From Clostridia bacterium (GTDB lineage: Bacteria > Bacillota > Clostridia > UMGS1883 > UMGS1540), in NCBI GenBank assembly GCA_045590195.1, contig JAZNQN010000044.1, positions 19,186-83,185 of the forward strand: a stretch of 64,000 nucleotides of DNA. Direction: 5' to 3'. The notes under the pieces were generated by a model, which was given only the letters and a program-made list of their open reading frames with translations, had not been told where the DNA came from and made no database searches. Shown in pieces: positions 1 to 55,466 of the stretch (position 1 is the first letter of the stretch; the number at the start of each line of letters is the position of its first letter). Both the position numbers and the translations under genes were made by a program.

Positions 1-495
1 GATGAAGAACAAAACAAGCTCTACATCAGAACAAACATATACAGAGATAACGGAGAATTAAAAGAAGGTAAACCTAAAACGGACGAGGGCGAAAGATGCA
101 TCATACTGCCAAAGGCAACTGCGGATATGTTAAAACAGCGAAGGCGGATATCAAAATGGATATTCCCGAACCTGACAACTCCTGGATTACCCATAGCACC
201 GGAGGCAGCCTACAGAAAAGCAAAACTGATTCTAAAAAGTCTGAATCTGCCGAACATATCCTTCCATGACCTACGACACACCTTCGCAACACATGCCATA
301 GCAAGCGGTGTAGATGCAAAAACACTATCAACGATACTTGGACATACAAACCCAAGCTTCACCCTCGACACATACACACATGTAACAACAGATATGCAAC
401 AAAAAGCATCAAATATAATAGAAATCTTTATGGAAGATATACTCGGAAAGGAGATGAAACCATGGCAAGACGAAAAAGCGGACAAGGAACAGTAA
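1..495 (+). CDS. Tyrosine recombinase / phage-type integrase, 5'-partial (ORF continues upstream of window start); C-terminal catalytic domain
   Basis: Frame 1 is open from nt 1. Contains the box II catalytic motif 'HDLRHTFATHAIASGVDAKTLSTILGHTNPSFTLDTYTHV' (R..H..R..Y tyrosine recombinase signature). Overlaps the next integrase gene by 34 nt in a different frame. Confidence 0.8.
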   Translation, partial: DEEQNKLYIRTNIYRDNGELKEGKPKTDEGERCIILPKATADMLKQRRRISKWIFPNLTTPGLPIAPEAAYRKAKLILKSLNLPNISFHDLRHTFATHAIASGVDAKTLSTILGHTNPSFTLDTYTHVTTDMQQKASNIIEIFMEDILGKEMKPWQDEKADKEQ

Positions 496-1889
496 GACTC
501 AGAAAAGATGGTCGATGGGAAGGCAGAATTGTAATCGGTTACGATGAAAATGGTCTTCCTAAGACAAAAAATGTAACAGCCAAGACAAAAACGGAATGTA
601 TTGAGAAGCTGGAAAAGCTCAAAGATGAAACAGGTTTTATCCGCAGAGAAAAAGTGCATAGCAGAATGACCTTCGGTGAATGGATGGACTTCTGGTATCA
701 GAATTACTGCAAAATGCGAATAAAGGAATCAACTCAAGAGGGCTATGAAACAAGAATATATAATCATATAATCCCCAAGATAGGAAAAATTCCCCTAAAT
801 GAATTGACTCAAAATGACCTGCAGAAATTCTACAACAGCCTTAAACAAGACGGCAGACTGAGATATCGGGATACGCTCGGCGAAGGACTGTCCGACAGGT
901 TCGTGCGAAGCTGCCATGCAAACTGCAGAACTGCACTTCAAAAGGCAACGGATGACAGACTTATAAAAAAGAATCCTGCAATAGGCTGCAAGATACCACC
1001 TAAAAAGTCAAGAGAGATGCAGGTGCTGACGCCGGATGAAATTAAAAGGTTTCTTATACAAGCAAAATATGACGGATTCTTCGAAATCTTCTTAGTAGCC
1101 TTATCTACAGGCTTACGGCGAGGAGAAGATATGGCACTAAAATGGGAAGACTTAAACCTCGATACAGGAGAACTAAAGGTGCGAAGACAAGTCAAACGGA
1201 CAAAAGGCAGATTGGTCATAACAGAGCCAAAGACAGAAGAATCGGTAAGAACGATAATACTACCCAAAAGCCTTGTAAACATCCTGAAGGAATATAAGGA
1301 AACAATAGACTCAGAGTGGATGTTCCCATCACCAAAAGTTGAAGGGATGCCAAGAGATCCCTCAGCAGTATATGGAATGATGCAGGTAATATTAGAAAGA
1401 GCAGAATGTAAAAAGCTTCGATTCCACGATCTCCGCCACACCTTCGCAACCACATCGGTAGCAAACGGAATGGACATCAAAACCTTATCCACCATCCTCG
1501 GACATGTATCAAGCAAAACAACACTTGATATATACCTGCACAGCACCGAGGAAATGAAGAAAGAAGCGGCTGAAAAGATTAACGCCCGATTCAACAAGGA
1601 TACAAACGGTAGCGAAGAAACAATCACAGAAGAACAAGAGAAGCCTCCGCAAGCCAAATTTGAGCCTAAAAAGGGCAAGATGAGAAAGCCCGGCACAGGA
1701 TGCATCAGTAAGATAAACGACCACCTATACGAAGGAAGATACTCGCCAAAGGATGACTACGGCAAACGAATGGCAAGAAACATATATGCACCGACAAGAG
1801 AAGAATGTGAAGAAAAGCTCGGCATACTGATAAAGGAAATGAAAGCCGAAATCGCAGAACAAAAAGCAAAGCTCAAAAATGCAAAATAA
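462..1889 (+). CDS. Tyrosine recombinase / integrase with N-terminal AP2-like arm-binding domain and a C-terminal repeat of that domain
   Basis: N-terminus 'RKDGRWEGRIVIGYDENGLPKTK..ECIEKLEKLK' is the Tn916/phage Int AP2-like DNA-binding type. Catalytic motif 'RFHDLRHTFATTSVANGMDIKTLSTILGHVSSKTTLDIYLHS'. The ~100-aa C-terminal tail 'LYEGRYSPKDDYGKRMARNIYAPTREECEEKLGILIKEM' is homologous to its own N-terminal domain. Confidence 0.85.
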   Translation: MARRKSGQGTVRLRKDGRWEGRIVIGYDENGLPKTKNVTAKTKTECIEKLEKLKDETGFIRREKVHSRMTFGEWMDFWYQNYCKMRIKESTQEGYETRIYNHIIPKIGKIPLNELTQNDLQKFYNSLKQDGRLRYRDTLGEGLSDRFVRSCHANCRTALQKATDDRLIKKNPAIGCKIPPKKSREMQVLTPDEIKRFLIQAKYDGFFEIFLVALSTGLRRGEDMALKWEDLNLDTGELKVRRQVKRTKGRLVITEPKTEESVRTIILPKSLVNILKEYKETIDSEWMFPSPKVEGMPRDPSAVYGMMQVILERAECKKLRFHDLRHTFATTSVANGMDIKTLSTILGHVSSKTTLDIYLHSTEEMKKEAAEKINARFNKDTNGSEETITEEQEKPPQAKFEPKKGKMRKPGTGCISKINDHLYEGRYSPKDDYGKRMARNIYAPTREECEEKLGILIKEMKAEIAEQKAKLKNAK

Positions 1890-2078: not shown

Positions 2079-2156
<78 letters not shown>

Positions 2157-2231: not shown

Positions 2232-2317
2232 ATTTTGTTTTTTTAGTCACCGTAAAGTGGCATTGTTAAAAGGTTTGCGGGAGTTCGGCTGATTACTAAT
2301 GAATTGAATAGTACCGT

Positions 2318-2357
2318 GTCCCGAACGATGCGCGCTACCAAACTGCGCTACACCCCG
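2318..2357 (-). pseudogene. Partial tRNA-Pro copy: 5' half through the anticodon loop only
   Basis: Reverse complement CGGGGTGTAGCGCAGTTTGGTAGCGCGCATCGTTCGGGAC matches the D-arm and anticodon arm of tRNA-Pro. It diverges immediately after the anticodon loop, with no T-arm or acceptor 3' strand. Confidence 0.7.
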
Positions 2358-2443: not shown

Positions 2444-4204
2444 TTATTCCGCAATCATATATTCGCCAATAAACAATATTTCTTCGTTTGTATTATCACG
2501 AATTACAAAAGTAAATGGTTTATCAAATTTTACTTCGATTGGCTCTGTTGGCGCAGAGGCAGCACCTGCCATCATTATTGCAGTTACAGCTGCAGCTTCA
2601 GTTCCTTTTTCGTCAACATTTATATACGTTTTATGAAGTATTTTATCTATGTACATATTAAACTCGTCTTTTTTATCAAACATCTTTTCAAATTCAGCCT
2701 CAAAGGCATCAAAGGCCTTAATTATACCGGCATTTTTCAAAATATCGTTAAGCTCTATTGATGTTTCGATTTTGAATTTCGGCACATAAAGATGAATTCT
2801 TTGACCTTTCATTCTGCCAAGACCAATAATATTTTCCAGTTCAGCTACCCTATTCTCATAATCTGTCATCATTATATACATACTTATATTTACATTATCA
2901 CGATGAAAATCGGCCACAGAGCCATCATCATTTAAAGTGTGAGTAGTACTCTCATAAGGTAACTCTATTACAGTTGTTTTATCATCAGCAAAATACATAA
3001 AATTAGCTGTGTTTTGCATAAATTCAGCTTTTGAAACTGTTCCGTCGAAATTATAAAAATTATCTTTAGAGGTTAATTCTTCTTCAAATTCATTATTCCA
3101 GTTTCCGCTGAAATATACCGCATTTATAAGTGCGGCCCAAAAATCAGCGCTATTTATAATTTCAGGAATTTTTTCGTTTGTTTTATCCGAAACCCAGTTA
3201 TTTATTGTTTTAACAGCATTTTTTCTGTCAACCTCTTTTGCCTCAGCACCATAATAGGAATACACTGTGTCTTTATATGTTCTTGAAAAATTTTTGGTGC
3301 TTTCATCCTTATTAAGCCAAATAGAATTTGCAATACTAAGCTTAACAGCTTTTGCCTCTAAATAGCTTTCAATTAAAGACTTTGCAGTTTCATTATACTG
3401 AGCTATATCATAAATTTCGGCAACTTCGCTTATTTCTTTATAAGTTTCGCCCTCTGCCCCGTTTGCTGCAAGCGCAAGAGCCATTTTAATTGAAAGCGGC
3501 GAAAACATATAGTTACTATTTTTCGGCATACCGCTATTTAAATCATCTGCAAAATAACTTTTGGCAGGTGTACCGCCAAATAGTATTCCTTCAAAATCAT
3601 TTTGTGTGTAAAGTCCCTTATCAATTAGCTTTTTATAAAGCATTTGTCCGTCAGCACATTTTGATGTAAGAGCGCTGCGGCAAAGCCTTGTTACATCACT
3701 TCTTAAAAGACTGTAATTTCCTTCAACAACGCTTTTGGTAAAATTATTGTTTATTACATCTGCAGCTTTTCCAATTTTAAGAGCGTTTTCAATTGTAACT
3801 TCAGAATATCCCATAACAGTCAATAAAATTTTTAAAAACTCTTTTCCCGTAACAGTTCTTTGCGGCTGAAAAGTAGTAGCTGATGTACCGTCAATATAGC
3901 CTGCTATGTAAAATTTTTCTATAACATCGGCCGCCCAGTGGCCTTTTACATCTTCAAACGGGAAATCGGCCATAGCTATGTCACTAAATGCTACTCCTGT
4001 TGTGCGCCAGATGAAAGTTAGCGCTTCTGCACGAGTTACCTCTCTCTCCAGTTCATAACCAATATCTGTACCCTTTAAAATGCCAAGTATTGCCATACCT
4101 TCTGCACCGGTATCAATAGGTATTTCTTCCCTTGGTAAGATTGCTGCCGAAGCAGATACGAAAAGCATTAAGGCAGCTAACAATAAAGCAAATATTTTTT
4201 TCAT
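2444..4204 (-). CDS. Secreted serpin (serine protease inhibitor) with N-terminal signal peptide and SLH-like cell-wall-anchoring repeats
   Basis: Signal peptide MKKIFALLLAALMLFVSASA. SLH-like repeats (..VTRAEALTF.., FEDVKGHWAADVIEKFYIAGYIDGTSATTFQP..VTGKEF). Serpin core from 'MFSPLSIKMALALAANGAEGETYKEI' to the C-terminal signature 'KPFTFVIRDNTNEEILFIGEYMIAE'. RBS GGAGG. Confidence 0.8.
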   Translation of the reverse strand: MKKIFALLLAALMLFVSASAAILPREEIPIDTGAEGMAILGILKGTDIGYELEREVTRAEALTFIWRTTGVAFSDIAMADFPFEDVKGHWAADVIEKFYIAGYIDGTSATTFQPQRTVTGKEFLKILLTVMGYSEVTIENALKIGKAADVINNNFTKSVVEGNYSLLRSDVTRLCRSALTSKCADGQMLYKKLIDKGLYTQNDFEGILFGGTPAKSYFADDLNSGMPKNSNYMFSPLSIKMALALAANGAEGETYKEISEVAEIYDIAQYNETAKSLIESYLEAKAVKLSIANSIWLNKDESTKNFSRTYKDTVYSYYGAEAKEVDRKNAVKTINNWVSDKTNEKIPEIINSADFWAALINAVYFSGNWNNEFEEELTSKDNFYNFDGTVSKAEFMQNTANFMYFADDKTTVIELPYESTTHTLNDDGSVADFHRDNVNISMYIMMTDYENRVAELENIIGLGRMKGQRIHLYVPKFKIETSIELNDILKNAGIIKAFDAFEAEFEKMFDKKDEFNMYIDKILHKTYINVDEKGTEAAAVTAIMMAGAASAPTEPIEVKFDKPFTFVIRDNTNEEILFIGEYMIAE

Positions 4205-4254
4205 ATTATACCTCCTTTTTCCTTTTTAGACGAGCAGTTTTAAAAAAAGTTCCA

Positions 4255-4295
4255 AAAAACCCAAAAAATCCGCCAAGGCGGATTTTTTGGGTTTA
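4255..4295 (-). terminator. Rho-independent terminator after htrA
   Basis: Stem aatccgcc-aa-ggcggatt flanked by A/T runs (cccaaaaaatccgccaaggcggattttttggg). Confidence 0.6.
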
Positions 4296-4318
4296 GGGAT
4301 ATATCTATGAAAACGTGG

Positions 4319-5638
4319 TTATTGCGCTTTTGTAGTATCTTCGCCAAGAACAACCGAAACATCCATTGCAGAGCCGTTTCTGTTGATTTTAAGAGTTATA
4401 GTGTCGCCTGCTTTGTGTGAATCGCGTATTTCATTAAGGCCTTCGGAGCTTGTAACTTCCTGTCCGTTACAGGAAATAATTATATCACCCTTCATAATTC
4501 CGGCTTTTGCAGCACCTGTTCCCTCTGTAACTTCTACAACAAAAAGTCCTTTTGCAGGGAGATTGTAATAATAAGCTTCCTGCTCGGAAACATATCTTAC
4601 TGAAAGCCCAATAAGCGGACGGCCTTTTACATAGCCAAAGTTAATAAGGTCTTCAATAATAGGTTTTGCATCACTTATTGGAATTGCAAACCCAAGGCCT
4701 TCAACCCCGCTTGAAGAAACCTTAACCGAGTTAATGCCGATAACTTCGCCAAATTCGTTAACAAGCGCTCCACCGCTGTTACCAGGATTAATTGCAGCAT
4801 CTGTCTGAATCATTTTATAGGTTCTTCTGTCAACAGTAACAGTTCTGTTAACGGCACTTATAATACCCTGAGTAAGCGAGCCTGCAAACTCAAGCCCTAG
4901 TGGATTACCGATTGCAACAACTTTTTCGCCTGCTTCAAGATTTGTGCTTTCACCAAAAACAGCCGCAGGAAGATTTGTTTCCTCTATTTTAATTACCGCA
5001 AGGTCGGTTTTTTCGTCGCCACCAATAAGTTTTGCCTCATATTCTTTTCCTGTATTTAAAACAACTTTAACCGAGGTTGCACCTGCGATTACATGGTAGT
5101 TTGTAACAATGTATCCGTTCTCTGTAAAAATAATACCTGAGCCACTACCTGATGAAACATCTGAGAAAAAGCCCTGATACTGAACTGTGCTGACAATTCC
5201 AACTACTGATGGGCCAACAAGTTTTCCAATATCAACTGTTGACAACACTTTTCTGTCGTCTTTATTATAAGTTACGGGCTGTGCATTTGTTTTGTTTTCT
5301 TCGATTTGTGAAGTTCCAAATGAAAACTGCTGCATATTTCCGTTTTGCATAAGGCCGCTGATTACAGGCGATACAAGCGAAAAAATGAGAGCTCCCATTA
5401 TTGCGCTGACCGTTGCAACAAGCCAGGTTTTGGGCTTTTTATGCTTTTTCTCTCTTTTTATATTCTGCTTATAAGAAGAAACAACCACAGGATAAACATC
5501 ACCTTTTTTAAATCTGTAAGAAGTATCTTCATCTATTGTAAAGAAAGATTGTTGATTTTCATTTTCCAATGTTTCTGCATCAAAAGCCATATTTGCTTCT
5601 TCTTCAGAAAAATTGTTGTTTTCAAAATTTTCTTGCAT
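4319..5638 (-). CDS. htrA: Membrane-anchored HtrA/DegP-family serine protease (S1C) with PDZ domain
   Basis: Trypsin-like motifs 'TNYHVI', 'DAAINPGNSGGALVN' and a C-terminal PDZ domain. N-terminal acidic cytoplasmic segment then a TM helix (WLVATVSAIMGALIFSLV). Start set at the ATG (MQENFEN) preceded by AGGAGAG rather than the upstream GTG of the ORF track. Confidence 0.85.
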   Translation of the reverse strand: MQENFENNNFSEEEANMAFDAETLENENQQSFFTIDEDTSYRFKKGDVYPVVVSSYKQNIKREKKHKKPKTWLVATVSAIMGALIFSLVSPVISGLMQNGNMQQFSFGTSQIEENKTNAQPVTYNKDDRKVLSTVDIGKLVGPSVVGIVSTVQYQGFFSDVSSGSGSGIIFTENGYIVTNYHVIAGATSVKVVLNTGKEYEAKLIGGDEKTDLAVIKIEETNLPAAVFGESTNLEAGEKVVAIGNPLGLEFAGSLTQGIISAVNRTVTVDRRTYKMIQTDAAINPGNSGGALVNEFGEVIGINSVKVSSSGVEGLGFAIPISDAKPIIEDLINFGYVKGRPLIGLSVRYVSEQEAYYYNLPAKGLFVVEVTEGTGAAKAGIMKGDIIISCNGQEVTSSEGLNEIRDSHKAGDTITLKINRNGSAMDVSVVLGEDTTKAQ

Positions 5639-5723
5639 AGTTTCTCTCCTTTGTTTTATTTGATTTAATTTTAACACTTAATTATTATCAATCTATGAAC
5701 AAACTTAAAAAAAAATTTAAAAC

Positions 5724-7139
5724 CTAGGCTTTTTTTAGTTTAAACTTAAATCTTGCCCACCTGTCTTTTTCGCTTTCAACTAAAATTTTTTCGCCGTGAT
5801 TTGCCAAAATGCTGTGAACCATAAAAAGCCCTAATCCCATACCATTTTTATCATAGCTACGAGATTTATCTGACTTATAAAATCTTTCAAACACATGGCT
5901 TATTTCCTCAGGGGTAATACCAATGCCAGAATTTTCAACAGAAATATCAACCTTTCCTCCCGAAGCTCGCAATACTTTAATTTTTATATATCCGCCTTCA
6001 AAATTAAATTTAATTGCGTTATCGATAAGGTTAGTCATAACCTGTGAAATTGCATCTTTATCGGCGAAAACAAATTCGTTTTCATTTTCAAATTCAATAT
6101 CAACATCAATTTTTTTCTCGTTAATCTGATTTTCAAATCTTAATATAGTTATTCTTACAAGCTCGTTAATATCAAAGCTTCTTGGCGAAAGCTTCATAGT
6201 GCCCGATTCAATTCTGGAAAGGTCTAAAAGTTTTCCAACAAGCCTTGCAAGACGTTTTGTTTCATCAAGAACAATTTTCAGGTATTTATCCTTATCTTCT
6301 TCTGAAATAGTTCCATCAAGAATCCCCTCAACAAAACCTGAAATTGTAGTCATAGGCGTTCTAAGTTCGTGAGAAACGTTTGAAATAAAATCAGAACGCA
6401 TATCTTCAAGGTTTTTTAAAGAATCGGTCATTTTATTAAAGTTTTCAGCAAGTTCCGCAATATCAGTATTCCCTTCTGCCCGAACTTTCAAATCAAAATT
6501 CCCTTTTGCTATTTCTTTGGAAATTTTATTCATTTCCATTATCGGCCTTGATATTCTTTTAGAGTAAAAATAAAGCATAACAACAACGCCGAAAAAAACG
6601 ATAGTTATTGTTGTAAGAAAGGTTTTAACAAAATAATACTTTTGCTGATTAACAACCGGAGATGGAACAGACAAAAAAGTTGCCCCTACAATAGAGTTAT
6701 TCCCTTTAAGAGGAATTCCAACCGTTAAATATGTCCCCTTAAAAAGGCCGTTCATATTACCAATCTGCAAAAAATCGTTACCATCTAAAACCTTTTTGGC
6801 AATTTTATCTTCAGGAACTCTGTCTCCAAAATGCTTCGATGCATTGTTGCTGGTTAACAGATTTCCATACCTGTCCATAATATACACAACGCCGTTTACT
6901 TTGCTTGCAGAATCGTTTAAGCTTTTTTTATAAAGCTTTTCAACAGTAGGCGTTCTGTTTGACAGATAAAATATCGTAAGGTCATTTATTCTTTCTGCTT
7001 CATCTCTTAAAATGTCGCCTTTTTCATTTATAAAAAAGTCGCCTAAAAAGCCAAATAAAACAGTTCCCGTAACAATTAAAAGAACAAGCGTTATAATTAC
7101 ACTTACAAATATAATTCTCGAGTAAATTGTTTTAAGCAT
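5724..7139 (-). CDS. Sensor histidine kinase (two TM helices, HAMP, HisKA, HATPase_c)
   Basis: H-box 'SHELRTPMTTI'; N, G1 and G2 boxes 'NLIDNAIKF', 'GMGLGL'; N-terminal TM helices flanking an extracytoplasmic loop. Confidence 0.85.
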   Translation of the reverse strand: MLKTIYSRIIFVSVIITLVLLIVTGTVLFGFLGDFFINEKGDILRDEAERINDLTIFYLSNRTPTVEKLYKKSLNDSASKVNGVVYIMDRYGNLLTSNNASKHFGDRVPEDKIAKKVLDGNDFLQIGNMNGLFKGTYLTVGIPLKGNNSIVGATFLSVPSPVVNQQKYYFVKTFLTTITIVFFGVVVMLYFYSKRISRPIMEMNKISKEIAKGNFDLKVRAEGNTDIAELAENFNKMTDSLKNLEDMRSDFISNVSHELRTPMTTISGFVEGILDGTISEEDKDKYLKIVLDETKRLARLVGKLLDLSRIESGTMKLSPRSFDINELVRITILRFENQINEKKIDVDIEFENENEFVFADKDAISQVMTNLIDNAIKFNFEGGYIKIKVLRASGGKVDISVENSGIGITPEEISHVFERFYKSDKSRSYDKNGMGLGLFMVHSILANHGEKILVESEKDRWARFKFKLKKA

Positions 7140-7838
7140 TTACTTCACCTCAAACTTATATCCTACTCCCCACACAGTTTTAAGCGACCAGCCTTCATCA
7201 ACGCCTTCAAGCTTTTCACGAAGCCTTTTTACATGAACATCAACCGTTCTTGAATCGCCAAAATAATCAAAATCCCAAACTTCACCCAGCAGCTGTTCTC
7301 TAGTAAAAACGCGGTTTGGATGAGATGCAAGAAAATATAAAAGCTCGAGTTCCTTTGGCGGAACATCAATTTCTTCTTCCTGAACGCGAAGCTCGTAATT
7401 GTTAAGGCTTATGTAAAGCCCGGGAAGGGAAACCTCGCCATTATCGGCTTTGTCAGCTTTATTTTCAAATCTTCTTAAAACTGCCTTTATTCTTGCAGAA
7501 AGCTCTTTTGCCTCAAAAGGCTTAACAATGTAGTCATCCGCTCCCATTTCGAGCCCTAAAACTTTGTCAAATGTTTCGCCTTTGGCAGTAAGCATAATTA
7601 TCGGAACATTACTCTCTGCCCTGATTTCTCTGCAAACTCTTATTCCATCGATTTTAGGAAGCATAATATCAAGCACTATAAGGTCAGGCGATGCTGATTT
7701 AAACTTTTCTATTGCCTCTTCGCCATCGTATGCAAACAAGGTTTCATAACCTTCTTTTTTAAGATACAAACCTATAAGGTCGCAAATATTTTTATCATCG
7801 TCAACAACCAAAATTTTCGTTTCGTTCATTAAATTCAC
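7140..7838 (-). CDS. OmpR-family response regulator (CssR/VicR-like)
   Basis: Receiver domain 'ILVVDDD...DLIVLDIMLP'; winged-helix C-terminus 'VWGVGYKF'. Confidence 0.85.
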   Translation of the reverse strand: MNLMNETKILVVDDDKNICDLIGLYLKKEGYETLFAYDGEEAIEKFKSASPDLIVLDIMLPKIDGIRVCREIRAESNVPIIMLTAKGETFDKVLGLEMGADDYIVKPFEAKELSARIKAVLRRFENKADKADNGEVSLPGLYISLNNYELRVQEEEIDVPPKELELLYFLASHPNRVFTREQLLGEVWDFDYFGDSRTVDVHVKRLREKLEGVDEGWSLKTVWGVGYKFEVK

Positions 7839-9293: not shown

Positions 9294-10196
9294 ATGACAA
9301 AACCTGTTCTTCGCAGCGTTAACGGGAAAAATCTTGTTTTTGCAGTTTCTGATAGTCTTTGCGTTTCAGAAGATATTCCAACACCTTCTCATACGCTTTG
9401 TACTATGCTAAAAAAATATCACGATAAGCTTGCTGAAGCAAATGTTGAACAGCTTGATGCAGTAATGCGTGATTTTGCAACAGATTTAAACGGAGAAATA
9501 AGCGTTATTGCTTCTGCTTCATCTTATAAAGACTACGCTTCCTCTCTTTCTCTTCTCACTGTAAACGGCGGCGTTGCAACAGTTACAAATGTTGGTAATA
9601 CTTCAGCTTTTTTAATGCGTGATGGTCAGCTTACTGAGCTTGCCTCGCCAAATGTTGCAAAATTGCATAAGGCTATCGTTCCAGGAAACGGAAATATGAT
9701 TGGAAATTTCAGAAGTGGCGAAACTTTAACGCCCGACCTTTCCGATTCATACGAAATTGTAAAAAACGATGTTTTCCTTCTTTGCTCTGATGGGCTTACT
9801 TCAGCACTTAATCAGCAAAGAATTTCATACATACTTTCACTTGATTTATCTGATGAGCGCCTTGCTACAAGGCTTGTAAGCGAAGCCCTCGCCCGCGGTG
9901 CAAACGATGATATAACTGTAATGATTATAAGAAATGGAGCAACACCTTATTCTTCGCCCAAGAAGAGAAAAACTGCTGTATCGCTTTGTTTTGGGGTTAT
10001 TTTACTTGCAGTTTTTGTTGCATTTATAACTTCATCATTCAAATCCTGTTCCAAAAAACCTGAAATTTCAAATGAAGGAGCAACTATCACAGAAACTGCA
10101 TCGCCGAAGCCTGATGAGTTTATGACTTCAGAAAACGATGCTTCTCCCACCCCGGTACCAACAGACGATTTTATTCTGCGAACACCAAAACCATAA
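9294..10196 (+). CDS. Membrane-anchored PP2C-like protein with degenerate metal-binding motifs (likely pseudophosphatase) and Pro/Thr-rich extracytoplasmic tail
   Basis: Aligns to PrpC/Stp PPM phosphatases ('LLCSDGLTSAL', 'GANDDITVMII' retained). The RxxNED, DGMGG and GDSR positions read RSVNGK, SDSLC and GNTS. TM helix 'VSLCFGVILLAVFVAFI'. Sigma-A-like promoter TTGACA-17-TATAAT at ~9133-9161. Confidence 0.6.
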   Translation: MTKPVLRSVNGKNLVFAVSDSLCVSEDIPTPSHTLCTMLKKYHDKLAEANVEQLDAVMRDFATDLNGEISVIASASSYKDYASSLSLLTVNGGVATVTNVGNTSAFLMRDGQLTELASPNVAKLHKAIVPGNGNMIGNFRSGETLTPDLSDSYEIVKNDVFLLCSDGLTSALNQQRISYILSLDLSDERLATRLVSEALARGANDDITVMIIRNGATPYSSPKKRKTAVSLCFGVILLAVFVAFITSSFKSCSKKPEISNEGATITETASPKPDEFMTSENDASPTPVPTDDFILRTPKP

Positions 10197-10232
10197 ATTT
10201 AAAGCTGAGCAAAATTTGCTCAGCTTTTTTAA
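10197..10232. terminator. Bidirectional terminator between the PP2C-like gene and yunB
   Basis: aaagctgagcaaaatttgctcagctttttt palindrome with flanking A/T runs. Confidence 0.6.
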
Positions 10233-10918
10233 TCGCCATCCGGCAAAAGGTTTAAAACTGCGTCCTGAGGGTCGCTTTGCCCTGTAACATTAGTATATGT
10301 TCCCGGTACTCCTCCAACAATTATTGTTTCCGCAATCGGTATCTGGGTTTTAACAGAAGTACTTTTTGAGCTGATTGGAAGAAGCACTGAGATTGTCATA
10401 CTTATTTCAAGATAAATTTCGTGTTTCGTTTGGTTAATACCGGCAGAAGTAAACTCATTTTTAACATCAATTCCGGCGTAACCAACAGGTACCATTTTTA
10501 TTTTAATTTTAGGCCCAAGGCCTGAAAACATACTTTGATTTAAAAGATTTCCAAGCGGTATTTTCGTAGTCATAAGGTCAATATCGCTTACCTTTTTTTC
10601 AACTTCCATAGCAATAGTTGACTTGAGTCTGTTTATCTCAACAACATTCGAAGTAACCGCAGCAACATTGTTTTCTCCATTTTTCTGAAAAGATACAAGG
10701 TCGCTGTATTTAATATCCGAATTTGCCATTATATCGTTTACAACATTTGCAATAACTCTTACTGCAACGCTTTTTGCCCGAGAAGATGCAACTTCGTTTA
10801 TTATTGGCCTCATTCGTACTTCGAAAATTGTAAATGAAATTATTGTACAAATCAGAAAAATGCAGAAAAATATGTAAAGCCATTTTTTCCTACTGCTTCG
10901 CCGATATTTCTTAGCCAC
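10229..10918 (-). CDS. yunB: Sporulation protein YunB-like
   Basis: N-terminal basic segment plus single TM helix, ~230 aa, overall similarity to the YunB family (recalled rather than aligned). Confidence 0.5.
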   Translation of the reverse strand: MAKKYRRSSRKKWLYIFFCIFLICTIISFTIFEVRMRPIINEVASSRAKSVAVRVIANVVNDIMANSDIKYSDLVSFQKNGENNVAAVTSNVVEINRLKSTIAMEVEKKVSDIDLMTTKIPLGNLLNQSMFSGLGPKIKIKMVPVGYAGIDVKNEFTSAGINQTKHEIYLEISMTISVLLPISSKSTSVKTQIPIAETIIVGGVPGTYTNVTGQSDPQDAVLNLLPDGD

Positions 10919-11001
10919 AAAGCATCACCATTTTTATTCTATTCAGCAAATTTTCTTTTCGTTACAAAAAACCGCCTGCAGAACAAACTTTCCGCAAACG
11001 G

Positions 11002-11964
11002 TTATTCTTCGTAAAACTCAAGTTTTACTTTGTATTTATTTTCAATATAATCTGCATTGCATCGCTTTTGTCCCAAATACTGGGAAAGTTTACCCTTGGG
11101 AACCTTCATTGAAATTACTTTTTCGCTAGAATTTTTCACAAATTCTTCAATTTCATCGCGTAAAATTCTCGCCCTGACCATTTCGCCCATAGCGCTATGA
11201 TATCCGCCTGCCAGAATTTCATCGCCAAGAGTATCTGTTTCCTGAAGACCTACCCTTATAACGTTAACGCCGCCGCTTTCTAAAATTTTAACAGCCTTTG
11301 CAGAAATTTCAACTGCTTCAGTAATGCTAAGTGGCTTATATTCGCTATATTTATACATTTCGCCAAGCTTTGTGTGTTTCAATACACAAGTTGGATATAC
11401 CCTCGCCTCGTCAGCACCAAGCCTCACAATTTCATTTGCTGTGAAAATAGTTTTTTCTTCTGTATCTCCGGGAAGACCGGGCATCATCTGAAGACCAAGA
11501 ATAAAGCCGTGTTTTTTAATAAGCTTTGCCGCATTTTCGGCATCTTTTGCACTATGGCCTCTGTTTGATAATTTAAGTACATCATCACACATCGACTGGA
11601 CACCAAGTTCAATATTTGTAACACCGTAATTTTTCAGCATTATCAGTATGTCTTCAGTTATATAATCAGGCCTTGTAGAAAGCCTTATGCCATCAACAAT
11701 TCCTCTGTCAACATATTCTTTTGCAACAGAAAGATATTCTTTTTGTTTTTCGGTTTCTATTCCCGTAAAACTTCCACCGAAAAAAGCAATAAGTGCTTTT
11801 CTGTTTTTCAAAAAACTCAGAAATGTATCAATAGTCGATTTAACATTTTCGGCAGTAGGCTCGCTTTTTTCTCCTGTGATTGAGTGCTGATTGCAAAAAA
11901 CGCAGTCATTTTTACAACCAAAATGCGGAATAAAAACCGGAATATTCGAATACTTTTCACTCAT
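11002..11964 (-). CDS. Radical SAM protein (ELP3/MiaB-like superfamily)
   Basis: CxxxCxxC motif 'CKNDCVFC' near the N-terminus; ~320 aa; abuts the rnc stop codon. Confidence 0.6.
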   Translation of the reverse strand: MSEKYSNIPVFIPHFGCKNDCVFCNQHSITGEKSEPTAENVKSTIDTFLSFLKNRKALIAFFGGSFTGIETEKQKEYLSVAKEYVDRGIVDGIRLSTRPDYITEDILIMLKNYGVTNIELGVQSMCDDVLKLSNRGHSAKDAENAAKLIKKHGFILGLQMMPGLPGDTEEKTIFTANEIVRLGADEARVYPTCVLKHTKLGEMYKYSEYKPLSITEAVEISAKAVKILESGGVNVIRVGLQETDTLGDEILAGGYHSAMGEMVRARILRDEIEEFVKNSSEKVISMKVPKGKLSQYLGQKRCNADYIENKYKVKLEFYEE

Positions 11965-37621: not shown

Positions 37622-38452
37622 TTAGTATTCGTCAGGCAGCTCGTCAAGCTGGTCACACCTGAAAACCGGGCCGTCTTTACATACATATTTAGAACCAATG
37701 TTGCATCTGCCGCATTTACCAACGCCGCACTTCATTTTAAGTTCCATAGTAGTATAAATCTGAGTTTTTTCAAAGCCAAGTTCCTGAAGGCCCTGAAGGG
37801 TAAATTTAATCATAATAGGCGGACCACAGATTATTGCTGTTTTATTCGTGTCAAACCCGAGTTCCTTTACATAGTTTGGAACAAAGCCAACATGGCCATC
37901 CCATCCATCCTGAGGGTTATCAATTGTAAGATGAACATTTATTCCTTCATCCTTACACCATTCGTCGATAATTTCTTTATAATCAACAAGGTCGTCCATA
38001 CTTCTTGAGCCGTAAACTATATCAATTTTACCATAGCGGTCACGATAGTGACGGCAGTAGTTGATAACTGAACGAAGCGGTGCAAGGCCGATACCGCCGG
38101 CAATAAAGAGCATATCTTTGCCTGCAAATTCGGTGTCAACAGGGAAAGGATTTCCGTAAGGGCCACGAATTGTAATTTGCTGGCCTACTTCTGCCTGATG
38201 AAGCCACTCGGTAACGCAGCCGCACTTTTTAATGGAAAACTCCATATATTCAGTATTTGTTGGAGAAGAAGTAATTGAAAACATAGCCTCTCCCACTCCG
38301 GGAATTGAAAGCATTGCGCATTGACCCGGTTTATGGTCGAATGCTTTTTTGCCGTCGGGTGTTAAAACGCGGAAGGTTTTAACATCGGGGGTATCAATTC
38401 TTACATCACAAATTGTACCAATTTTTGGAATCAATGGATCTTGATTATTCAT
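37622..38452 (-). CDS. FAD/NAD(P)H-binding oxidoreductase with C-terminal Cys cluster (PyrK/NfnA/AsrB/sulfhydrogenase-gamma/FlxA-like)
   Basis: FNR-like fold 'FRVLTPDGKK..HKPGQCAML', 'LFIAGGIGLAPLRS' and C-terminal 'CGVGKCGRCN'. ATG (MNNQDP) with GGAGGTG RBS. Confidence 0.7.
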   Translation of the reverse strand: MNNQDPLIPKIGTICDVRIDTPDVKTFRVLTPDGKKAFDHKPGQCAMLSIPGVGEAMFSITSSPTNTEYMEFSIKKCGCVTEWLHQAEVGQQITIRGPYGNPFPVDTEFAGKDMLFIAGGIGLAPLRSVINYCRHYRDRYGKIDIVYGSRSMDDLVDYKEIIDEWCKDEGINVHLTIDNPQDGWDGHVGFVPNYVKELGFDTNKTAIICGPPIMIKFTLQGLQELGFEKTQIYTTMELKMKCGVGKCGRCNIGSKYVCKDGPVFRCDQLDELPDEY

Positions 38453-39461
38453 TGTCTGCACCTCCAAGTTCTTTCATAACCTTTACAATATTCATTGAAA
38501 TAGGACACTTTGAAAGGCATCTGCCACAACCAACACATCCGAATATTCCATCGTTATTTTCAGGGAAGTATACAAGTTTGTGCATAAATCTCTGACGGAA
38601 ACGTTCTTTCTGAGAATTACGGGAGTTGCCGTGAGCCATTTTAGTAAAATCGGAATACATACACGAATCCCAGCAACGAAAACGTTGAACACCATTTCCT
38701 GTGTTAAAATCTTTAATGTCATAGCACTGACAGGTTGGGCATACAAAAGTACAGGTTCCACAGCCAAGGCAGCTTTCAGAAAGTTCTTCCCATTTTGGGC
38801 TTTCAAAATACTTTTCTGTTTTACCTCCACCAAAAGCATCAGTTTTTAAATTTTTAAGTGGAAGTTTTTCAATGTAAGTGCGAATTTTTGCTTTTTCTTC
38901 ATCTGCGGCTACAGTATCGCACTCCTGGCCAATCCCTTCAAGAAGAGCAGTTCCTTTTTCAGTTTTTGCGTCGATATAAACCACATCATCAACAATTGTG
39001 CATTCAACATCTCCACCGGGTGCAGAAGCATCAATACCAAAAGCAGCACAAAAACAAGTTTCTTCAGGGCGCGAGCAAGCAACAGTTATTATAGTTGCTC
39101 CCTCTCTTCTTTTCTGATAGAATGTGTCAACAGGTTCTGAGAGAAAAACTCTGTCAAGAATTTCAAAGCTTTTAAGATCGCAGGCGCGAACACCAAAAAT
39201 CGCAAAATTACCAATATCTTCACGAATATCGATAACTTCTATATTTTTGCCTTCTGTTTTAAAGTGCATCATATTTTCAACCTGAGGAAAGAAAAAGTCT
39301 TTCGCGCTCCTGGTTGTGTTAAGTTTTTTGGAATATTCTATTCCTTCTTCCCATTTTTTAAATGAAGCACCTTCTTTTCCGTCAGCCGGGAGATAAAGTG
39401 GCATTTTATCGGCAACGGCCTTGAAAAAATCGCAAATGTTAATTTTACGCATTTTCGCCAT
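38445..39461 (-). CDS. 4Fe-4S cluster protein (AsrA / sulfhydrogenase-beta / FlxB/C-like)
   Basis: 'CLGCGTCTFVCPTCQCYD' and 'CVGCGRCLSKCP' ferredoxin motifs; ~338 aa as in AsrA. Confidence 0.65.
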   Translation of the reverse strand: MAKMRKINICDFFKAVADKMPLYLPADGKEGASFKKWEEGIEYSKKLNTTRSAKDFFFPQVENMMHFKTEGKNIEVIDIREDIGNFAIFGVRACDLKSFEILDRVFLSEPVDTFYQKRREGATIITVACSRPEETCFCAAFGIDASAPGGDVECTIVDDVVYIDAKTEKGTALLEGIGQECDTVAADEEKAKIRTYIEKLPLKNLKTDAFGGGKTEKYFESPKWEELSESCLGCGTCTFVCPTCQCYDIKDFNTGNGVQRFRCWDSCMYSDFTKMAHGNSRNSQKERFRQRFMHKLVYFPENNDGIFGCVGCGRCLSKCPISMNIVKVMKELGGADNE

Positions 39462-40437
39462 CTCCTTTCTCCACAGCCTCGGAAGGCTCTAAATCTTCTG
39501 TAGTGTAGTTTACAAGCGGAGCACGAAGGCCTACTTCTTCCCCTGCCTGATACTCACCATAGAAAGAGTTTATATCTTTTATAAACTTACGGTTTAAAAG
39601 ATGAAGTGGAATGTTTTGCGGACAAACTCTTGAACATTCGCCGCAATCTGTACATCTTCCGGCAACGTGAAAAGCTCTTATAATGTGAAACATTTTTTCT
39701 TCAAAGCTATCTGCTGCGGCTTTGTTTTCCACGCCTGATTTAGGATTGCCAAATACGCACTGTTCACAAGTACAAGCGGGACAGACATCGCGGCAGGCAT
39801 TACATCTTATACATCTTGAAAGCTCGCCCTGCCAGAAAGCAAATCTTTCATCGGCAGACATTTTTTCAAGGCGCTTAACTTCATCAAAGCGGTTAGAATC
39901 AATAATTTCGCCTTCGTCGCCAATAAGTTCATCGTATGCAACATGCTTGCGGCTTTTGCAAGAGATGCATCTTTCAGCTAAAACATCAGCTTTATTAAAT
40001 ACTTTTTCATCGCCATAAATTGATTTTACCAAAATTTCATCGCCGTTTTCCAAAATTTCAGAAACAGCAGAAATTTCAGCTTTAATTTTTGAAACATCAG
40101 TCATTCCATCGCAGGGAATTCCAACGGCATAAACTTTTTCGCGGTCTATGCGGTGTTCAGTTAAAAGCTGATTAAAACTGTATGTGTCACATGGTTTCAA
40201 GAAAACCAGCACTTTTCCATCTTTCTGGCATTCTTTTACTAGATATTTTGAAAAGTTTGCACCACAAAAAGCATTGTAAACAAAATCTTTTTTAAGAGAT
40301 TCGGCATCTTTAAACACACCGGGGGTTACATCGTATGAAAACTCGCCCTCTTTCCAGCCTAAAACTCTGTCAACCTTTCCGCTTTCAAGGAGGTTTAATG
40401 CTTTATCTATAAGAATATCACGATTTATTGTTTGCAT
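39445..40437 (-). CDS. FrhB/FdhB-like flavoprotein (coenzyme F420 hydrogenase/dehydrogenase beta-subunit family) with 4Fe-4S motifs
   Basis: N-terminal FrhB_FdhB_N-like region and C-terminal 'CIRCNACRDVCPACTCEQC' / 'CTDCGECSRVCP' clusters. Confidence 0.55.
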   Translation of the reverse strand: MQTINRDILIDKALNLLESGKVDRVLGWKEGEFSYDVTPGVFKDAESLKKDFVYNAFCGANFSKYLVKECQKDGKVLVFLKPCDTYSFNQLLTEHRIDREKVYAVGIPCDGMTDVSKIKAEISAVSEILENGDEILVKSIYGDEKVFNKADVLAERCISCKSRKHVAYDELIGDEGEIIDSNRFDEVKRLEKMSADERFAFWQGELSRCIRCNACRDVCPACTCEQCVFGNPKSGVENKAAADSFEEKMFHIIRAFHVAGRCTDCGECSRVCPQNIPLHLLNRKFIKDINSFYGEYQAGEEVGLRAPLVNYTTEDLEPSEAVEKGDGENA

Positions 40438-40859
40438 CTTAAATCCTCCAATCTTTTGTTTTCGCCAAGAGCAGCAACTGCTTCGGCAAATTCATTCATT
40501 GTTTGCGCAAATTTTGCGCCTTCAGCCGCAGAAACCCATTCAACACGGGTTCTTTCTTTTTCAATACCGAGAAAATCGAGCATTGAGAAAAGAAGCGACA
40601 TTCTTCTTCTTGTATAGTAGTTACCAGAAGTATAATGGCAGTCGCCAGGGTGGCAACCACAGATTATAACCCCGTCTGCTCCACGCTGAAATGCTCTTAA
40701 AATAAACATTGGGTTTACCCTACAAGAGCATGGAACACGAATTATTTTAACTTCGGCAGGGTAACTGAGTCGGTTATTACCTGCAAGGTCGGCACCGGCA
40801 TAAGAACACCAGTTACAGCAAAATGCCACTATTAAAGGTTTTTTCTCTTCTATTTGCAT
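40425..40859 (-). CDS. mvhD: MvhD/FlpD-family hydrogenase iron-sulfur subunit (FlxD-like)
   Basis: 'IVAFCCNWCSYAGADLAG...IIRVPCSCRVNP...GADGVIICGCHPGDCHYTSGN' matches the MvhD Cys pattern. Confidence 0.8.
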   Translation of the reverse strand: MQIEEKKPLIVAFCCNWCSYAGADLAGNNRLSYPAEVKIIRVPCSCRVNPMFILRAFQRGADGVIICGCHPGDCHYTSGNYYTRRRMSLLFSMLDFLGIEKERTRVEWVSAAEGAKFAQTMNEFAEAVAALGENKRLEDLRCKQ

Positions 40860-42844: not shown

Positions 42845-42858
42845 TTGCTTTCTCCTTT

Positions 42859-43251
42859 CTATTTACTATATTTTCTCATTGCACTTACAATTGCCTGTTG
42901 TGGCAACTGTTCATCTAAAAGTGAAGGTATTGCATCAGCTTTAAGATGATTTTCGCCCTGCTGACGTACTTTTAAAAGCCTTACTGCTTCAATAAGTTTT
43001 GCCGGCTCTACGCCTCTGGGACAACGCTCAACACAGGCAAAACAAGAAAGACATTTGAAAATTGAAGGCGACTCCATAAGTTTATCAACATCACCGTTTT
43101 CAACCATATAAACAAACTGATGAGGATGATATTCCATTTCATCATAAGAAGGACATGTACCTGTGCATTTGCCGCATTTCATACATTTTTTAGGATTAAC
43201 ACCGCTGATGCGCAAAATTTCGTTTGAAAGCTCTGTTTTATTCATTTGCAC
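42859..43251 (-). CDS. hdrC: Heterodisulfide reductase subunit C (HdrC, 2x[4Fe-4S])
   Basis: 'CMKCGKCTGTCP' and 'CLSCFACVERCP'. Confidence 0.8.
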   Translation of the reverse strand: MQMNKTELSNEILRISGVNPKKCMKCGKCTGTCPSYDEMEYHPHQFVYMVENGDVDKLMESPSIFKCLSCFACVERCPRGVEPAKLIEAVRLLKVRQQGENHLKADAIPSLLDEQLPQQAIVSAMRKYSK

Positions 43252-44032
43252 AGCCCTCCTTTACGCCAAGCGCCTGTGCTAAAAGCTCGGTAAAATATTT
43301 AATTTCTATACCGTCGGCGTGTTTTTCAAGATTATATTTGCAAAGTGGGCAAGCTGTTACTATCATATCTGCACCCATTTTTTTGGCACTTTCCAAAATA
43401 GCAATACTCTTCTTCTTTGCACTTTCACTATCTTCAAGAGCTATATATCCGCCGCAGCATTCGTTTCTGTATGGCGAAACTATTGCTTCCGCACCCATAG
43501 CTTTTACAAGATTTTCAAGAATCTGCGGATTTTCGCTGTCGTCCATCTGCATAACTTTACCAGGACGAAGCAAAAGACAACCATAATATGGAGCAATTTT
43601 TTTACCCTCAAGAGGATTTGTAACTTTTTTGGCAATTTCTTCAAAGCCAATTTCATCTCTCAAAAGCTCAAGATAATGAATAACCTCTGCATCTCCCTCA
43701 TAAGGCGTATCAAGATTCATATAGTTATTTGCTTTAAAAGCAAAATCGCTATCGTTATTAAACTGATAATTTGTTTGTTTTATTACATTATGGCAGGCAG
43801 CACAAACTGTTACAAGCTTCTGACCTTTTTCTTTTGCCTCTACAAGGGCACGAATTGAGGAAAGCTTTGTTGCAATTTCATCCTTCGAAGTTGTAAAAAC
43901 TCCGCCGCAGCACTGCCAGTTATTTATTTCTTCCAGATTAACCCCTAATGCCGCCGCACTTTCTCTTGCGTATTTATCAAGTTCTTTTGCTTTGGTTTTA
44001 AGAGTACAACCGGGATAATATGAAAAATTCAT
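43238..44032 (-). CDS. hdrB: Heterodisulfide reductase subunit B (HdrB, two CCG domains)
   Basis: 'YYPGCTL', 'CCGG' and 'CAACHN' in repeat 1; 'YYGCLL', 'CCGG' and 'CPLCKYN' in repeat 2. ATG (MNFSYY) with AGGGAG RBS. Confidence 0.8.
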   Translation of the reverse strand: MNFSYYPGCTLKTKAKELDKYARESAAALGVNLEEINNWQCCGGVFTTSKDEIATKLSSIRALVEAKEKGQKLVTVCAACHNVIKQTNYQFNNDSDFAFKANNYMNLDTPYEGDAEVIHYLELLRDEIGFEEIAKKVTNPLEGKKIAPYYGCLLLRPGKVMQMDDSENPQILENLVKAMGAEAIVSPYRNECCGGYIALEDSESAKKKSIAILESAKKMGADMIVTACPLCKYNLEKHADGIEIKYFTELLAQALGVKEGCANE

Positions 44033-44054
44033 ACCTAAACTCCCTTCTGCAAAA

Positions 44055-54988: not shown

Positions 54989-55466
54989 TGTTTATCTCCT
55001 CTCTGAGTTTTTTCAAAAGCTCTGATGCTTTATCCGGTGTCATTGCAGAATATACAACATCGTTTACTGTAAGTACCGGAGCAAGACCACAAGCGCCGAG
55101 ACATGATACTGTTTCAAGTGTAAAGTTTAAGTCGTCGGTAGTTTTTTTGCTTTCGCTAAGTCCAAGTTCACTGCGAAGACGCTCCAAAATCGGAATGGAA
55201 CGGCGAACATGACAAGCTGTTCCGTCGCATATTTTTATTACATATTTTCCCTTTGGTTCAAGAGAAAAGTTTTCGTAAAATGTTGCTACGCTGAAAATCC
55301 TAACTTCAGGAATGTTAAGCTGTTTTGCAAGATGTGGAAAAATATCTTTTGGCAAGTAATGATATTCTTCCTGAATTTCCTGCAAAATTGCGATAATTGC
55401 CTGTGGATTTTTGTCGTATTTATCGACTATTTTATCTACGATTGCAAAATCAAACTGTTCACTCAT
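54981..55466 (-). CDS. hydC: NuoE-like thioredoxin-like [2Fe-2S] subunit HydC, copy 1
   Basis: 'CDGTACHVRRS...CLGACGLAPV'. Confidence 0.85.
   Translation of the reverse strand: MSEQFDFAIVDKIVDKYDKNPQAIIAILQEIQEEYHYLPKDIFPHLAKQLNIPEVRIFSVATFYENFSLEPKGKYVIKICDGTACHVRRSIPILERLRSELGLSESKKTTDDLNFTLETVSCLGACGLAPVLTVNDVVYSAMTPDKASELLKKLREEINNA

Follow-up and report, generated by a model that had tools for sequence, protein, structure and literature searches.

The serpin gene studied here lies in a 64,000-nucleotide stretch of DNA from a Clostridia bacterium (contig JAZNQN010000044.1, hereafter the window), in which four long open reading frames (ORFs) occupy the minus strand of positions 2444-7838. 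In the direction of transcription these encode an OmpR-family response regulator (RR, 7829-7140), a sensor histidine kinase (HK, 7139-5724), a membrane-anchored HtrA/DegP-type serine protease (htrA, 5638-4319) and a serpin that carries a domain of the S-layer homology (SLH) type (4204-2444). We consider it probable that the four genes form two separate envelope-protection units, namely an RR-HK-htrA operon and a monocistronic serpin gene under its own promoter of the type used by extracytoplasmic function (ECF) sigma factors. This reading is based on the gene and domain anatomy of the locus, the distribution of the serpin family, a terminator located past htrA, and the conservation of a promoter-like motif directly behind that terminator.

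Genes were assigned by ORF calling and Pfam searches. The RR (229 amino acids) matches Response_reg (E=1e-32) and Trans_reg_C (E=3e-27), the HK (471 amino acids) carries HAMP, HisKA and HATPase domains together with transmembrane segments, and the HtrA protein (439 amino acids) matches Trypsin_2 (E=5.5e-35) and PDZ_2 (E=1.5e-14). The serpin (586 amino acids) was defined by Pfam, AlphaFold models and alignments. The length given for the RR follows from a start at 7829, and that for HtrA from an ATG at 5638 that is preceded by the ribosome-binding site AAGGAGAG. All four products are matched letter for letter in a public protein collection. A first-pass annotation of this DNA had reported the same four genes on one strand, and both their coordinates and their Pfam domains agree with that report. 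However, it had placed HtrA and the two-component system (TCS) formed by the RR and HK downstream of the serpin, whereas both lie upstream in the direction of transcription. Related loci fetched from genome and metagenome collections are designated below by L-numbers (L001, L081 and so on), and related proteins by P-numbers.

The SLH-serpin and its family

The serpin is composed of a signal peptide (residues 1-21), an SLH domain (residues ~30-213), a linker and a serpin core (residues 222-583). Its N-terminus, MKKIFALLLAALMLFVSASA|A, reads as a Sec signal peptide without a lipobox and forms part of a hydrophobic stretch spanning residues 1-25, in keeping with the signal peptide proposed at first pass. 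Pfam detects a single SLH repeat only (E=5e-8), which corresponds to repeat 2 (residues 82-123). An AlphaFold model of residues 30-213 (minus strand, 3566..4117), built from 16 family sequences, has a pLDDT of 90.4, and its top 15 Foldseek matches are all three-repeat SLH domains, from either P. alvei SpaA or B. anthracis Sap (TM-score 0.6-0.7, probability 1.00, 156-190 alignment columns; the next match has E=1.8). In the matched structures, the SLH domain holds a fragment of pyruvylated cell-wall polymer. The serpin has the polymer-binding motif TRAE in its first repeat, with the variants TGKE and LRSD in repeats 2 and 3, respectively. Within the first of these, T57, R58 and A59 are invariant in 34 of 34 aligned members, and TRAE is found in 111 of 121 family members. 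The modelled fold supports display of the window serpin on the cell surface through its SLH domain. The repeats that had been called SLH-like thus match a complete three-repeat SLH fold rather than a different kind of repeat. One related locus (L107) encodes another large SLH protein.

The serpin core is complete, as the first-pass annotation had it. Pfam aligns it with PF00079 (E=1.2e-83), taking in positions 10-368 of the 370 in that model, and its best structural matches are native miropin (TM-score 0.79) and tengpin (TM-score 0.80), at 30% identity. A total of 125 serpins in the PDB match the window serpin with E<1e-20. The full-length model has a pLDDT of 84, with a flexible linker at residues 210-215 and a reactive loop that is disordered at residues 538-551 (pLDDT <50). 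Compared with conserpin and alpha1-antitrypsin, the core has a family-specific insertion at residues ~418-447 (nucleotides ~2864-2953) that follows the consensus PYKN..(5)..DENG..(8)..D.DVSMY and is modelled as an extra beta-hairpin.

The reactive-centre loop (residues 534-560; minus strand, 2525..2605) was located by alignment to the loops of conserpin and alpha1-antitrypsin, and its sequence is GTEAAAVTAIMMAGA|ASAPTEPIEV. Its hinge reads E-K-G-T-E-A-A-A-V-T and agrees with the consensus of inhibitory serpins, in which P17 is Glu, P15 is Gly, P14 is Thr, and P12-P9 are small residues, with neither Pro nor a charged residue. No variation among 34 aligned members is seen at G534, T535, E536, A537 or T541, and at least 90% of them keep A538, A539 and V540. 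If 14 residues are counted on from the glycine at P15, in line with the alignment to the loop of alpha1-antitrypsin, P1 is Ala548 and P1' is Ala, and the residues around the predicted scissile bond are A-I-M-M-A-G-A|A-S-A-P. The primed side is four residues longer than in alpha1-antitrypsin. Across 110 family members, P1 is most often Thr (55 members), followed by Ser (33) and Ala (17), with Ser or Ala at P1'.

The serpin is apparently inhibitory, judging from this sequence. Degeneracy of the loop had been raised at first pass as a possible weakness, but the loop is not degenerate, the hinge is canonical (GTEAAAVT) and the predicted P1 is a small residue. The loop points to serine proteases that tolerate a small or aliphatic residue at P1. 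In siropins, elastase inhibition occurs via Val sites displaced from the nominal P1 (PMC5127057), so Met, Ile and Val at P4-P9 of the window serpin could also serve. The target protease class is one that sequence alone does not fix. Type I signal peptidase was considered as a target on the sole hint of an Ala-X-Ala-like P3-P1 pattern and was set aside.

A family search that covered 5.8 billion proteins returned 756 matches, the best 120 of which are described here. On these best 120 of 756, the SLH-serpin family comprises at least 120 clusters, with 41-98% identity and lengths of 555-646 amino acids, and nearly all are precomputed as Serpin + SLH. Those that have a name are annotated as ‘hypothetical’ or ‘S-layer homology domain-containing protein’; where hosts are named, these are Clostridia, Oscillospiraceae and Ruminococcaceae metagenome-assembled genomes. 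The record names of relatives indicate rumen, caecum, human gut and bioreactor sources. A scan of the genome collection with the full-length family alignment yielded L001-L003 and L006-L008 as family members among the matches listed, the remainder of which are mostly generic serpins of other phyla. A metagenome scan with the single serpin protein gave zero matches, and a scan with an alignment of the N-terminal domain gave 18 loci. No description of a serpin-SLH fusion was found in the literature searched. As judged from these sequences, the SLH-serpin is a large uncharacterized family and not a one-off fusion.

Terminator and predicted promoter ahead of the serpin gene

An intrinsic terminator is present past the htrA stop codon (minus strand, 4291-4252), where a perfect 15-bp stem, CCCAAAAAATCCGCC / GGCGGATTTTTTGGG, is followed by TTTTTTGG. 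The 114-nt intergenic region between htrA and the serpin gene has a minimum-free-energy fold of -32.3 kcal/mol. This terminator was found by reading and folding the sequence; a consensus terminator scan missed it, probably because its loop is very short. In related loci L081 and L083, GC-rich hairpins that differ from that of the window but are equivalent to it, each with a T tail, occupy the corresponding position after htrA, and L107/L108 likewise have a hairpin after htrA. Another hairpin, AAAGGTGCAACA / TGTTGCACCTTT, was read directly past the serpin stop codon (minus strand, 2437-2411). Its T-tail is weak, and it is a putative terminator of the serpin transcript.

Directly behind the htrA terminator, the window and relatives L081 and L083 share the motif TTGGAAC-N16-CGTCT(A/T)A. 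The predicted ECF-sigma-type promoter of the window, TGGAAC-N16-CGTCTAA (minus strand, 4226..4254), lies ~20 nt upstream of the ribosome-binding site of the serpin gene. The pattern GAAC-N15-18-CGTCTA has one match in the 64-kb window, which is the one at 4252-4227, with 0.10 expected by chance. Family loci totalling 330 kb hold 20 matches to xAAC-N15-18-CGTCTA (where x stands for A, C or G), and 15 of these lie on the coding strand a short way ahead of the serpin gene.

The wider pattern [GT]G[ACG]AAC-N16-17-CGTC is found within 250 nt of the serpin start in 15 of 23 distinct loci, and L007 adds a sixteenth with CGGAAC. In shuffles, the mean number of loci was 0.014, with a maximum of 1 across 2000 trials. 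The -35 variants are GGAAC, TGCAAC and TGAAAC. A spacer of 16 nt is found in 12 loci, L110 included, and one of 17 nt in 4 loci, and the spacer sequence is free. The distance from motif to start ranges from 38 to 222 nt, and is 38-90 nt in most loci. Locus L110 also has a terminator followed by the ECF-type motif, as in the window.

Experimentally defined ECF promoters include tGTTAC-N16-CGTC for T. tengcongensis RpoE1 and GGAACTT for E. coli sigma-E, and CGTC has been described as a common ECF -10 element (PMC3397946). The serpin motif resembles ECF promoters in its AAC-containing -35 element, its 16-17 nt spacer and its CGTC -10 element (PMC3397946). We infer that GGAAC-N16-CGTCTAA is an ECF-sigma-type promoter. 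No report of serpin genes as members of an ECF regulon was found in the literature searched. Sporulation, sigma-B, sigma-D, sigma-54 and sigma-I promoters were also considered, and none of their consensus sequences fits GGAAC-N16-CGTC.

In the form (G/T)G(G/C)AAC-N15-18-CGTC, the motif also lies directly upstream of serpin genes with other architectures. Two tandem lipoprotein serpins in L072 (7734-9030 and 9748-11041) have one copy each, and further lipoprotein serpins with the motif are encoded in L057 (Paenibacillus, ~226-1558) and L080 (~9750-11011); these lipoprotein-type serpins have an LxGC lipobox. The isolate Agathobaculum sp. Marseille-P7918 (L013, 9385-11128) has the motif ahead of a serpin with a different N-terminal domain, and a Phycisphaerae planctomycete (L023, 9744-11053) has it ahead of a secreted serpin.

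The RR-HK-htrA unit and its linkage to the serpin gene

The HK has transmembrane segments at residues ~1-38 and 168-196 with an extracytoplasmic loop of ~130 amino acids, and these are followed by the HAMP, HisKA and HATPase domains. Its H-box is SHELRTP, at H257, and Pfam detects no PAS domain in the protein. Full-length HK orthologues with 40-58% identity are present in many Clostridia. The best NCBIfam match of the RR is YycF (262 bits, below the 340-bit cut-off) and that of the HK is WalK (275 bits versus a cut-off of 725, in the C-terminal half only), and no CssR or CssS model is among the top matches of either protein. WalRK (YycFG) identity was rejected, given that both scores fall below their cut-offs and that the HK is without PAS.

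The HtrA protein has the catalytic residues H182, D212 and S288 (in GNSGG), one transmembrane segment (residues 70-98) and a single PDZ domain. Its N-terminal tail is cytoplasmic, and residues 1-45 include 12 acidic and 3 basic residues. The match to TIGR02037 scores 299 bits against a cut-off of 416 bits, a shortfall explained by the two PDZ domains built into that model. These features bear out two parts of the first-pass annotation, which had described an HtrA/DegP protease with an acidic N-tail and an OmpR-type RR/HK pair, the latter with the receiver and Trans_reg_C domains in the RR and the HAMP, HisKA and HATPase domains in the kinase.

The 85-nt spacer between the HK gene and htrA holds the repeat TGTTCA-N5-TGATAA (minus strand, 5701-5685), which overlaps a TTGATA -35-like hexamer of a sigma-A-like htrA promoter. 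Among five distinct loci, both hexamers of the repeat are kept in L081, L083 and L107/L108, L109 has TGTTCA-N5-TGTTAA, and the spacer varies. Allowing at most 1 mismatch, this box has one match in the 64-kb window, before htrA, and none before the serpin gene. A single match is within chance expectation (1.39), and the evidence for the box is its conservation at orthologous positions. It has the pattern expected of an OmpR/PhoB-type site and resembles the WalR consensus TGTWAH-N5-TGTWAH, and it is probably a binding site of the RR.

Two other repeats near these genes were given no weight. A WalR-like repeat shared by the window and L083, AGTAAA-N5-TGTAAA, lies ahead of the RR gene on the opposite strand; it loses its orientation and spacing in L107-L109, and no claim is made for it. 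The 9-mer TTCATAGAT is present both in the htrA box (minus strand, 5690-5698) and past the htrA stop codon (minus strand, ~4305-4313). Its second copy was treated as a chance occurrence because it is unconserved in L081/L083 and lies upstream of the terminator.

In Bacillus and Streptomyces, CssRS activates htrA-family genes (PMC12802291). The system in the window is similar to CssRS-htrA/htrB of Bacillus subtilis and Streptomyces in that an OmpR-type RR and a two-transmembrane HAMP kinase are linked to a membrane-anchored, single-PDZ HtrA, and the conserved repeat at the htrA promoter can also be likened to CssRS. It differs in that its three genes are co-directional with htrA last, and in that the best NCBIfam matches are YycF/WalK-like and sub-cut-off. 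The TCS and HtrA probably work in the manner of CssRS and are classed neither as CssRS nor as WalRK. The CssRS-like logic proposed at first pass is supported, as the triad is conserved in three distant loci with the box before htrA.

The RR-HK-htrA order is kept in 6 of 6 loci examined. Loci L107, L108 and L109, whose HKs are 55%, 57% and 42% identical to that of the window, have the RR upstream, htrA downstream and no serpin. The serpin gene adjoins htrA in L081/L082 (serpin 70% identical) and L083 (69%), where the arrangement is HK-htrA-serpin or RR-HK-htrA-serpin. A 4980-bp contig carries serpin P0002 and kinase P0124, and a 5819-bp contig carries serpin P0003 and kinase P0125. Adjacency of serpin and htrA is limited to relatives with a serpin identity of at least 69%.

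For the other family loci, the DNA examined reached up to 10 kb per side and was shorter upstream in L111 and in some short contigs. Homologues of HtrA, the kinase and the regulator are all absent from the fetched flanks of L001-L003, L006-L008, L084-L090, L093, L097, L099, L101, L105, L106, L110 and L111. The serpins of these htrA-less loci are 28-52% identical to that of the window, and their neighbours are quite different. Because linkage is absent outside the closest clade and the triad is found elsewhere without a serpin, the conserved unit is RR-HK-htrA and the serpin is a lineage-specific neighbour. In the sequences compared, serpin and RR-HK-htrA are neighbours only in one genus-level clade. 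A functional pairing of serpin and HtrA, as put forward at first pass, does not agree with the approximately 15 other family loci and the 3 of 3 distant HK-orthologue loci in which the linkage is missing.

An alternative hypothesis is that the TCS runs htrA and the serpin gene as one envelope-stress regulon, in which the serpin restrains the adjoining HtrA at the membrane-wall interface. The genes are close together on the same strand, their adjacency is seen in at least five relatives with serpins 69-76% identical, and both products act outside the membrane. In addition, Ala, Thr or Ser at P1 with flanking Val, Ile and Met fits the aliphatic P1 preference of the HtrA family. There is also a precedent in Bifidobacterium breve, where a TCS controls a serpin gene (Alvarez-Martin 2012, as cited in PMC8201313). 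Nevertheless, a shared regulon seems distinctly unlikely to us. All three sequenced versions of the locus have a terminator between htrA and the serpin gene, the putative RR box is before htrA only, and the ECF-type motif of the serpin gene is kept in genomes that lack a nearby HtrA or TCS. Moreover, the three distant HK-orthologue loci have htrA with no serpin, and the ~15 other family loci have the serpin with no nearby htrA. The common regulator suggested at first pass is not supported, given this combination of conserved terminator, separate promoter motif and box placement.

It is also unlikely, although slightly less so, that GGAAC-N16-CGTCTAA is an operator or an element of the 5' untranslated region, with the serpin gene transcribed from a sigma-A promoter or by read-through. 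In favour of such an explanation, the genes scanned yielded no cognate sigma factor, and the region is AT-rich, so that weak sigma-A-like hexamers are to be found in it; the promoter scan reported many such sites. Nonetheless, conservation falls precisely on AAC and CGTC, the two determinants of ECF promoters, which are held at a fixed spacing of free sequence and, in most loci, at a short distance before the start. The element furthermore recurs ahead of unrelated serpin architectures in other Firmicutes, and the promoter scan gave no sigma-70-type site within the 114 nt between htrA and the serpin gene. The least probable alternative concerns the protein itself, which might be a non-inhibitory surface protein, chaperone-like or binding, whose loop does not trap proteases. 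Thr, Ser or Ala at P1 is unusual for well-studied inhibitory serpins, ovalbumin is non-inhibitory and has Ala at P1, and the primed side of the loop is longer than in alpha1-antitrypsin. Yet the inhibitory hinge consensus is invariant or nearly so in the 34 aligned members, and the best structural matches, miropin and tengpin, are native inhibitory serpins. Furthermore, the siropins of gut bacteria inhibit elastases at Val sites that are displaced from the nominal P1 (PMC5127057).

Several observations weigh against the two-unit organization and should be considered alongside the evidence for it. The htrA-serpin adjacency is retained across the clade with 69-76% serpin identity, and read-through past the htrA terminator into the serpin gene is possible. 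The strict motif is absent from 7-8 of the 23 family loci. Two loci, L001 (~9900-10000) and L084 (~3630-3713), have no CGTC and carry the variant TGCAAC-N18-GTATTATA upstream of the serpin gene, in which the -10 element of this promoter type may have diverged. Among the window ORFs scanned with Pfam (most of those up to ~45 kb and a few beyond), there is no ECF sigma or anti-sigma factor, no csaB and no second SLH protein, and no ECF sigma gene is located beside the serpin gene in other family loci. Lastly, dnaX-ybaB-recR closely follows the htrA module in L107/L108 (8492-13946) and, in another lineage, an SLH-serpin gene in L110 (6001-11333). This shared neighbourhood could be a trace of an older htrA-serpin linkage, or a coincidence. 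Together with the retained adjacency, it leaves some probability to an older or a functional link between the two genes.

Genomic surroundings, proposed mechanism and related systems

Past the serpin gene, the hairpin is followed by a strong sigma-70-like promoter, TTGACT-17-TATAAT with TG (minus strand, 2400-2372; 11 of 12 positions matched), for the tRNA-Pro region. Next come a 5' fragment of a tRNA-Pro gene (minus strand, ~2313..2355), identical to the intact copy at 38 of 40 positions, ~155 nt of unrelated sequence, and the intact tRNA-Pro (CGG) gene itself (minus strand, 2079..2155; ARAGORN). The fragment diverges right after the anticodon loop. It is likely the junction of foreign or rearranged DNA, ~130 nt past the serpin stop codon, and it resembles the scar that an integration or rearrangement would leave at the anticodon loop. 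Integration targeted to a tRNA gene usually leaves a 3' fragment behind, unlike the 5' fragment present here.

Further along, the plus strand encodes a tyrosine recombinase/integrase (462..1889; Phage_integrase, E=6e-26, and Phage_int_SAM_3) and the 3' end of a second tyrosine recombinase (127-495, from ORF calling). The latter gene is cut by the left edge of the window, and the element of these tandem recombinases extends beyond that edge. The serpin gene is on the chromosomal side of tRNA-Pro and not between the integrase and att sites. Related locus L081 has the same cluster followed by lysA and no integrase, and the rest of the window holds core genes, including plsX, rnc, smc, ftsY, UPF0182, ruvX, tyrS, eno and genes for Hdr-like redox complexes. 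The mobile-element boundary described at first pass therefore has a real integrase behind it, but tRNA-Pro separates that gene from the serpin gene. The accessory origin that had been suggested for the serpin is not upheld, as it lies outside the junction among core genes and relatives carry the cluster without the integrase.

Elsewhere in the window, a plus-strand gene (9294-10196) encodes a PP2C/SpoIIE-like phosphatase domain with a transmembrane segment and a Pro/Ser/Thr-rich tail, and is divergent from a YunB sporulation gene (10229-10918). The presence of these two genes suggests that the organism is probably a spore former. Hdr-like and NuoE-like redox genes occupy two minus-strand regions (37622-45431 and 54981-62121). 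The Hdr-like cluster, located beside a fumarase, encodes a CCG-domain protein, 4Fe-4S proteins, MvhD/FlpD, a large Fer4/Pyr_redox_2 protein and an FAD/NAD-binding subunit. Two separate genes for NuoE-like 2Fe-2S thioredoxin-like ferredoxins (54981-55466 and 61633-62121) suggest duplicated electron-bifurcating hydrogenase or dehydrogenase operons.

If the serpin gene and RR-HK-htrA are indeed two separate units, a mechanism can be proposed in which regulator binding, sigma dependence, wall binding, inhibitory activity and the target protease are all predicted. The HK would sense an extracytoplasmic signal and phosphorylate the OmpR-type RR, which would bind TGTTCA-N5-TGATAA and activate the htrA promoter, such that HtrA output rises according to CssRS logic. 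HtrA would then degrade or refold damaged exported proteins, and transcription of RR-HK-htrA would stop at the strong terminator past htrA. An ECF sigma factor, presumably released on envelope stress, would transcribe the serpin gene from GGAAC-N16-CGTCTAA. The serpin would be exported by Sec and fixed non-covalently by its SLH domain to pyruvylated secondary cell-wall polymer, where its loop with a small P1 would trap surface-attacking serine proteases as covalent complexes. Candidate targets are elastase-like enzymes made by the host or by competing organisms, and possibly HtrA-type enzymes. The latter share the preference for small or aliphatic P1 residues, but nothing singles out the neighbouring HtrA as a target of the serpin.

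The window serpin can be compared with several known systems. The dockerin-bearing cellulosomal serpins of Clostridium thermocellum, such as PinA (Kang 2006, O Cuiv 2013; review PMC12484212), are also inhibitory-type Clostridia serpins fused to a surface-tethering module, with a proposed role as a shield against serine proteases. PinA-type serpins use a dockerin in a scaffoldin and inhibit subtilisins, whereas the window serpin has an N-terminal three-repeat SLH domain predicted to bind wall polymer directly, and no cellulosome genes are near it. Siropins from E. siraeum, miropin from T. forsythia, the B. longum serpin and tengpin have the same fold and hinge, and the loop of the window serpin is rich in small and aliphatic residues, as in elastase-directed siropins (PMC5127057). 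However, siropins are 44-48 kDa and consist of the serpin only, whereas the window serpin has ~190 extra N-terminal residues for its SLH domain, as well as the insertion at ~418-447.

Another protein of the Clostridium group, Chte0880 of C. thermocellum (PMC3901451), similarly uses SLH to place a protease-inhibitor domain on the wall. Its inhibitor consists of IPI-like repeats with an Ig-like IPI/BsuPI fold and acts reversibly, whereas that of the window is a suicide-substrate serpin. In Bifidobacterium breve, another gut Gram-positive, a TCS is encoded near the serpin gene (PMC8201313). In contrast, the conserved partner of the TCS in the window is htrA, and a terminator and an ECF-type promoter intervene before the serpin gene. 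What is new here is the SLH tether on a bacterial serpin together with the predicted ECF control, whereas the TCS-HtrA part is of a known kind.

More tentatively, and with somewhat less than even confidence, we propose that the surface-tethered serpins of Gram-positive anaerobes, which would include the SLH family of Oscillospiraceae and some lipoprotein serpins of Firmicutes, constitute a previously unrecognized class of ECF-sigma regulon members. These serpins might serve as an inducible anti-protease shield against elastase- and HtrA-type proteases, whereby envelope damage would activate the ECF sigma factor and the cell wall would become coated with a suicide inhibitor. In the genus of the window, where the serpin gene has ended up behind the htrA stress operon, two stress pathways could thus meet at one locus, and the serpin might curb collateral damage caused by HtrA.

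Bacterial serpins are few and poorly understood, and there is interest in them as modulators of gut proteolysis, as with the siropins and the B. longum serpin. The serpin-HtrA-TCS neighbourhood described here is not to be taken for an operon or a shared regulon. Our results would delineate a large, uncharacterized family of serpins attached to the wall of the very cell that produces them, and the hypothesis of ECF control is testable across many genomes, including that of the cultured Agathobaculum isolate. If this hypothesis is true, protease inhibition would be tied to the envelope-stress response of Gram-positive bacteria, and the family would offer wall-displayed inhibitors with specificity for small P1 residues.

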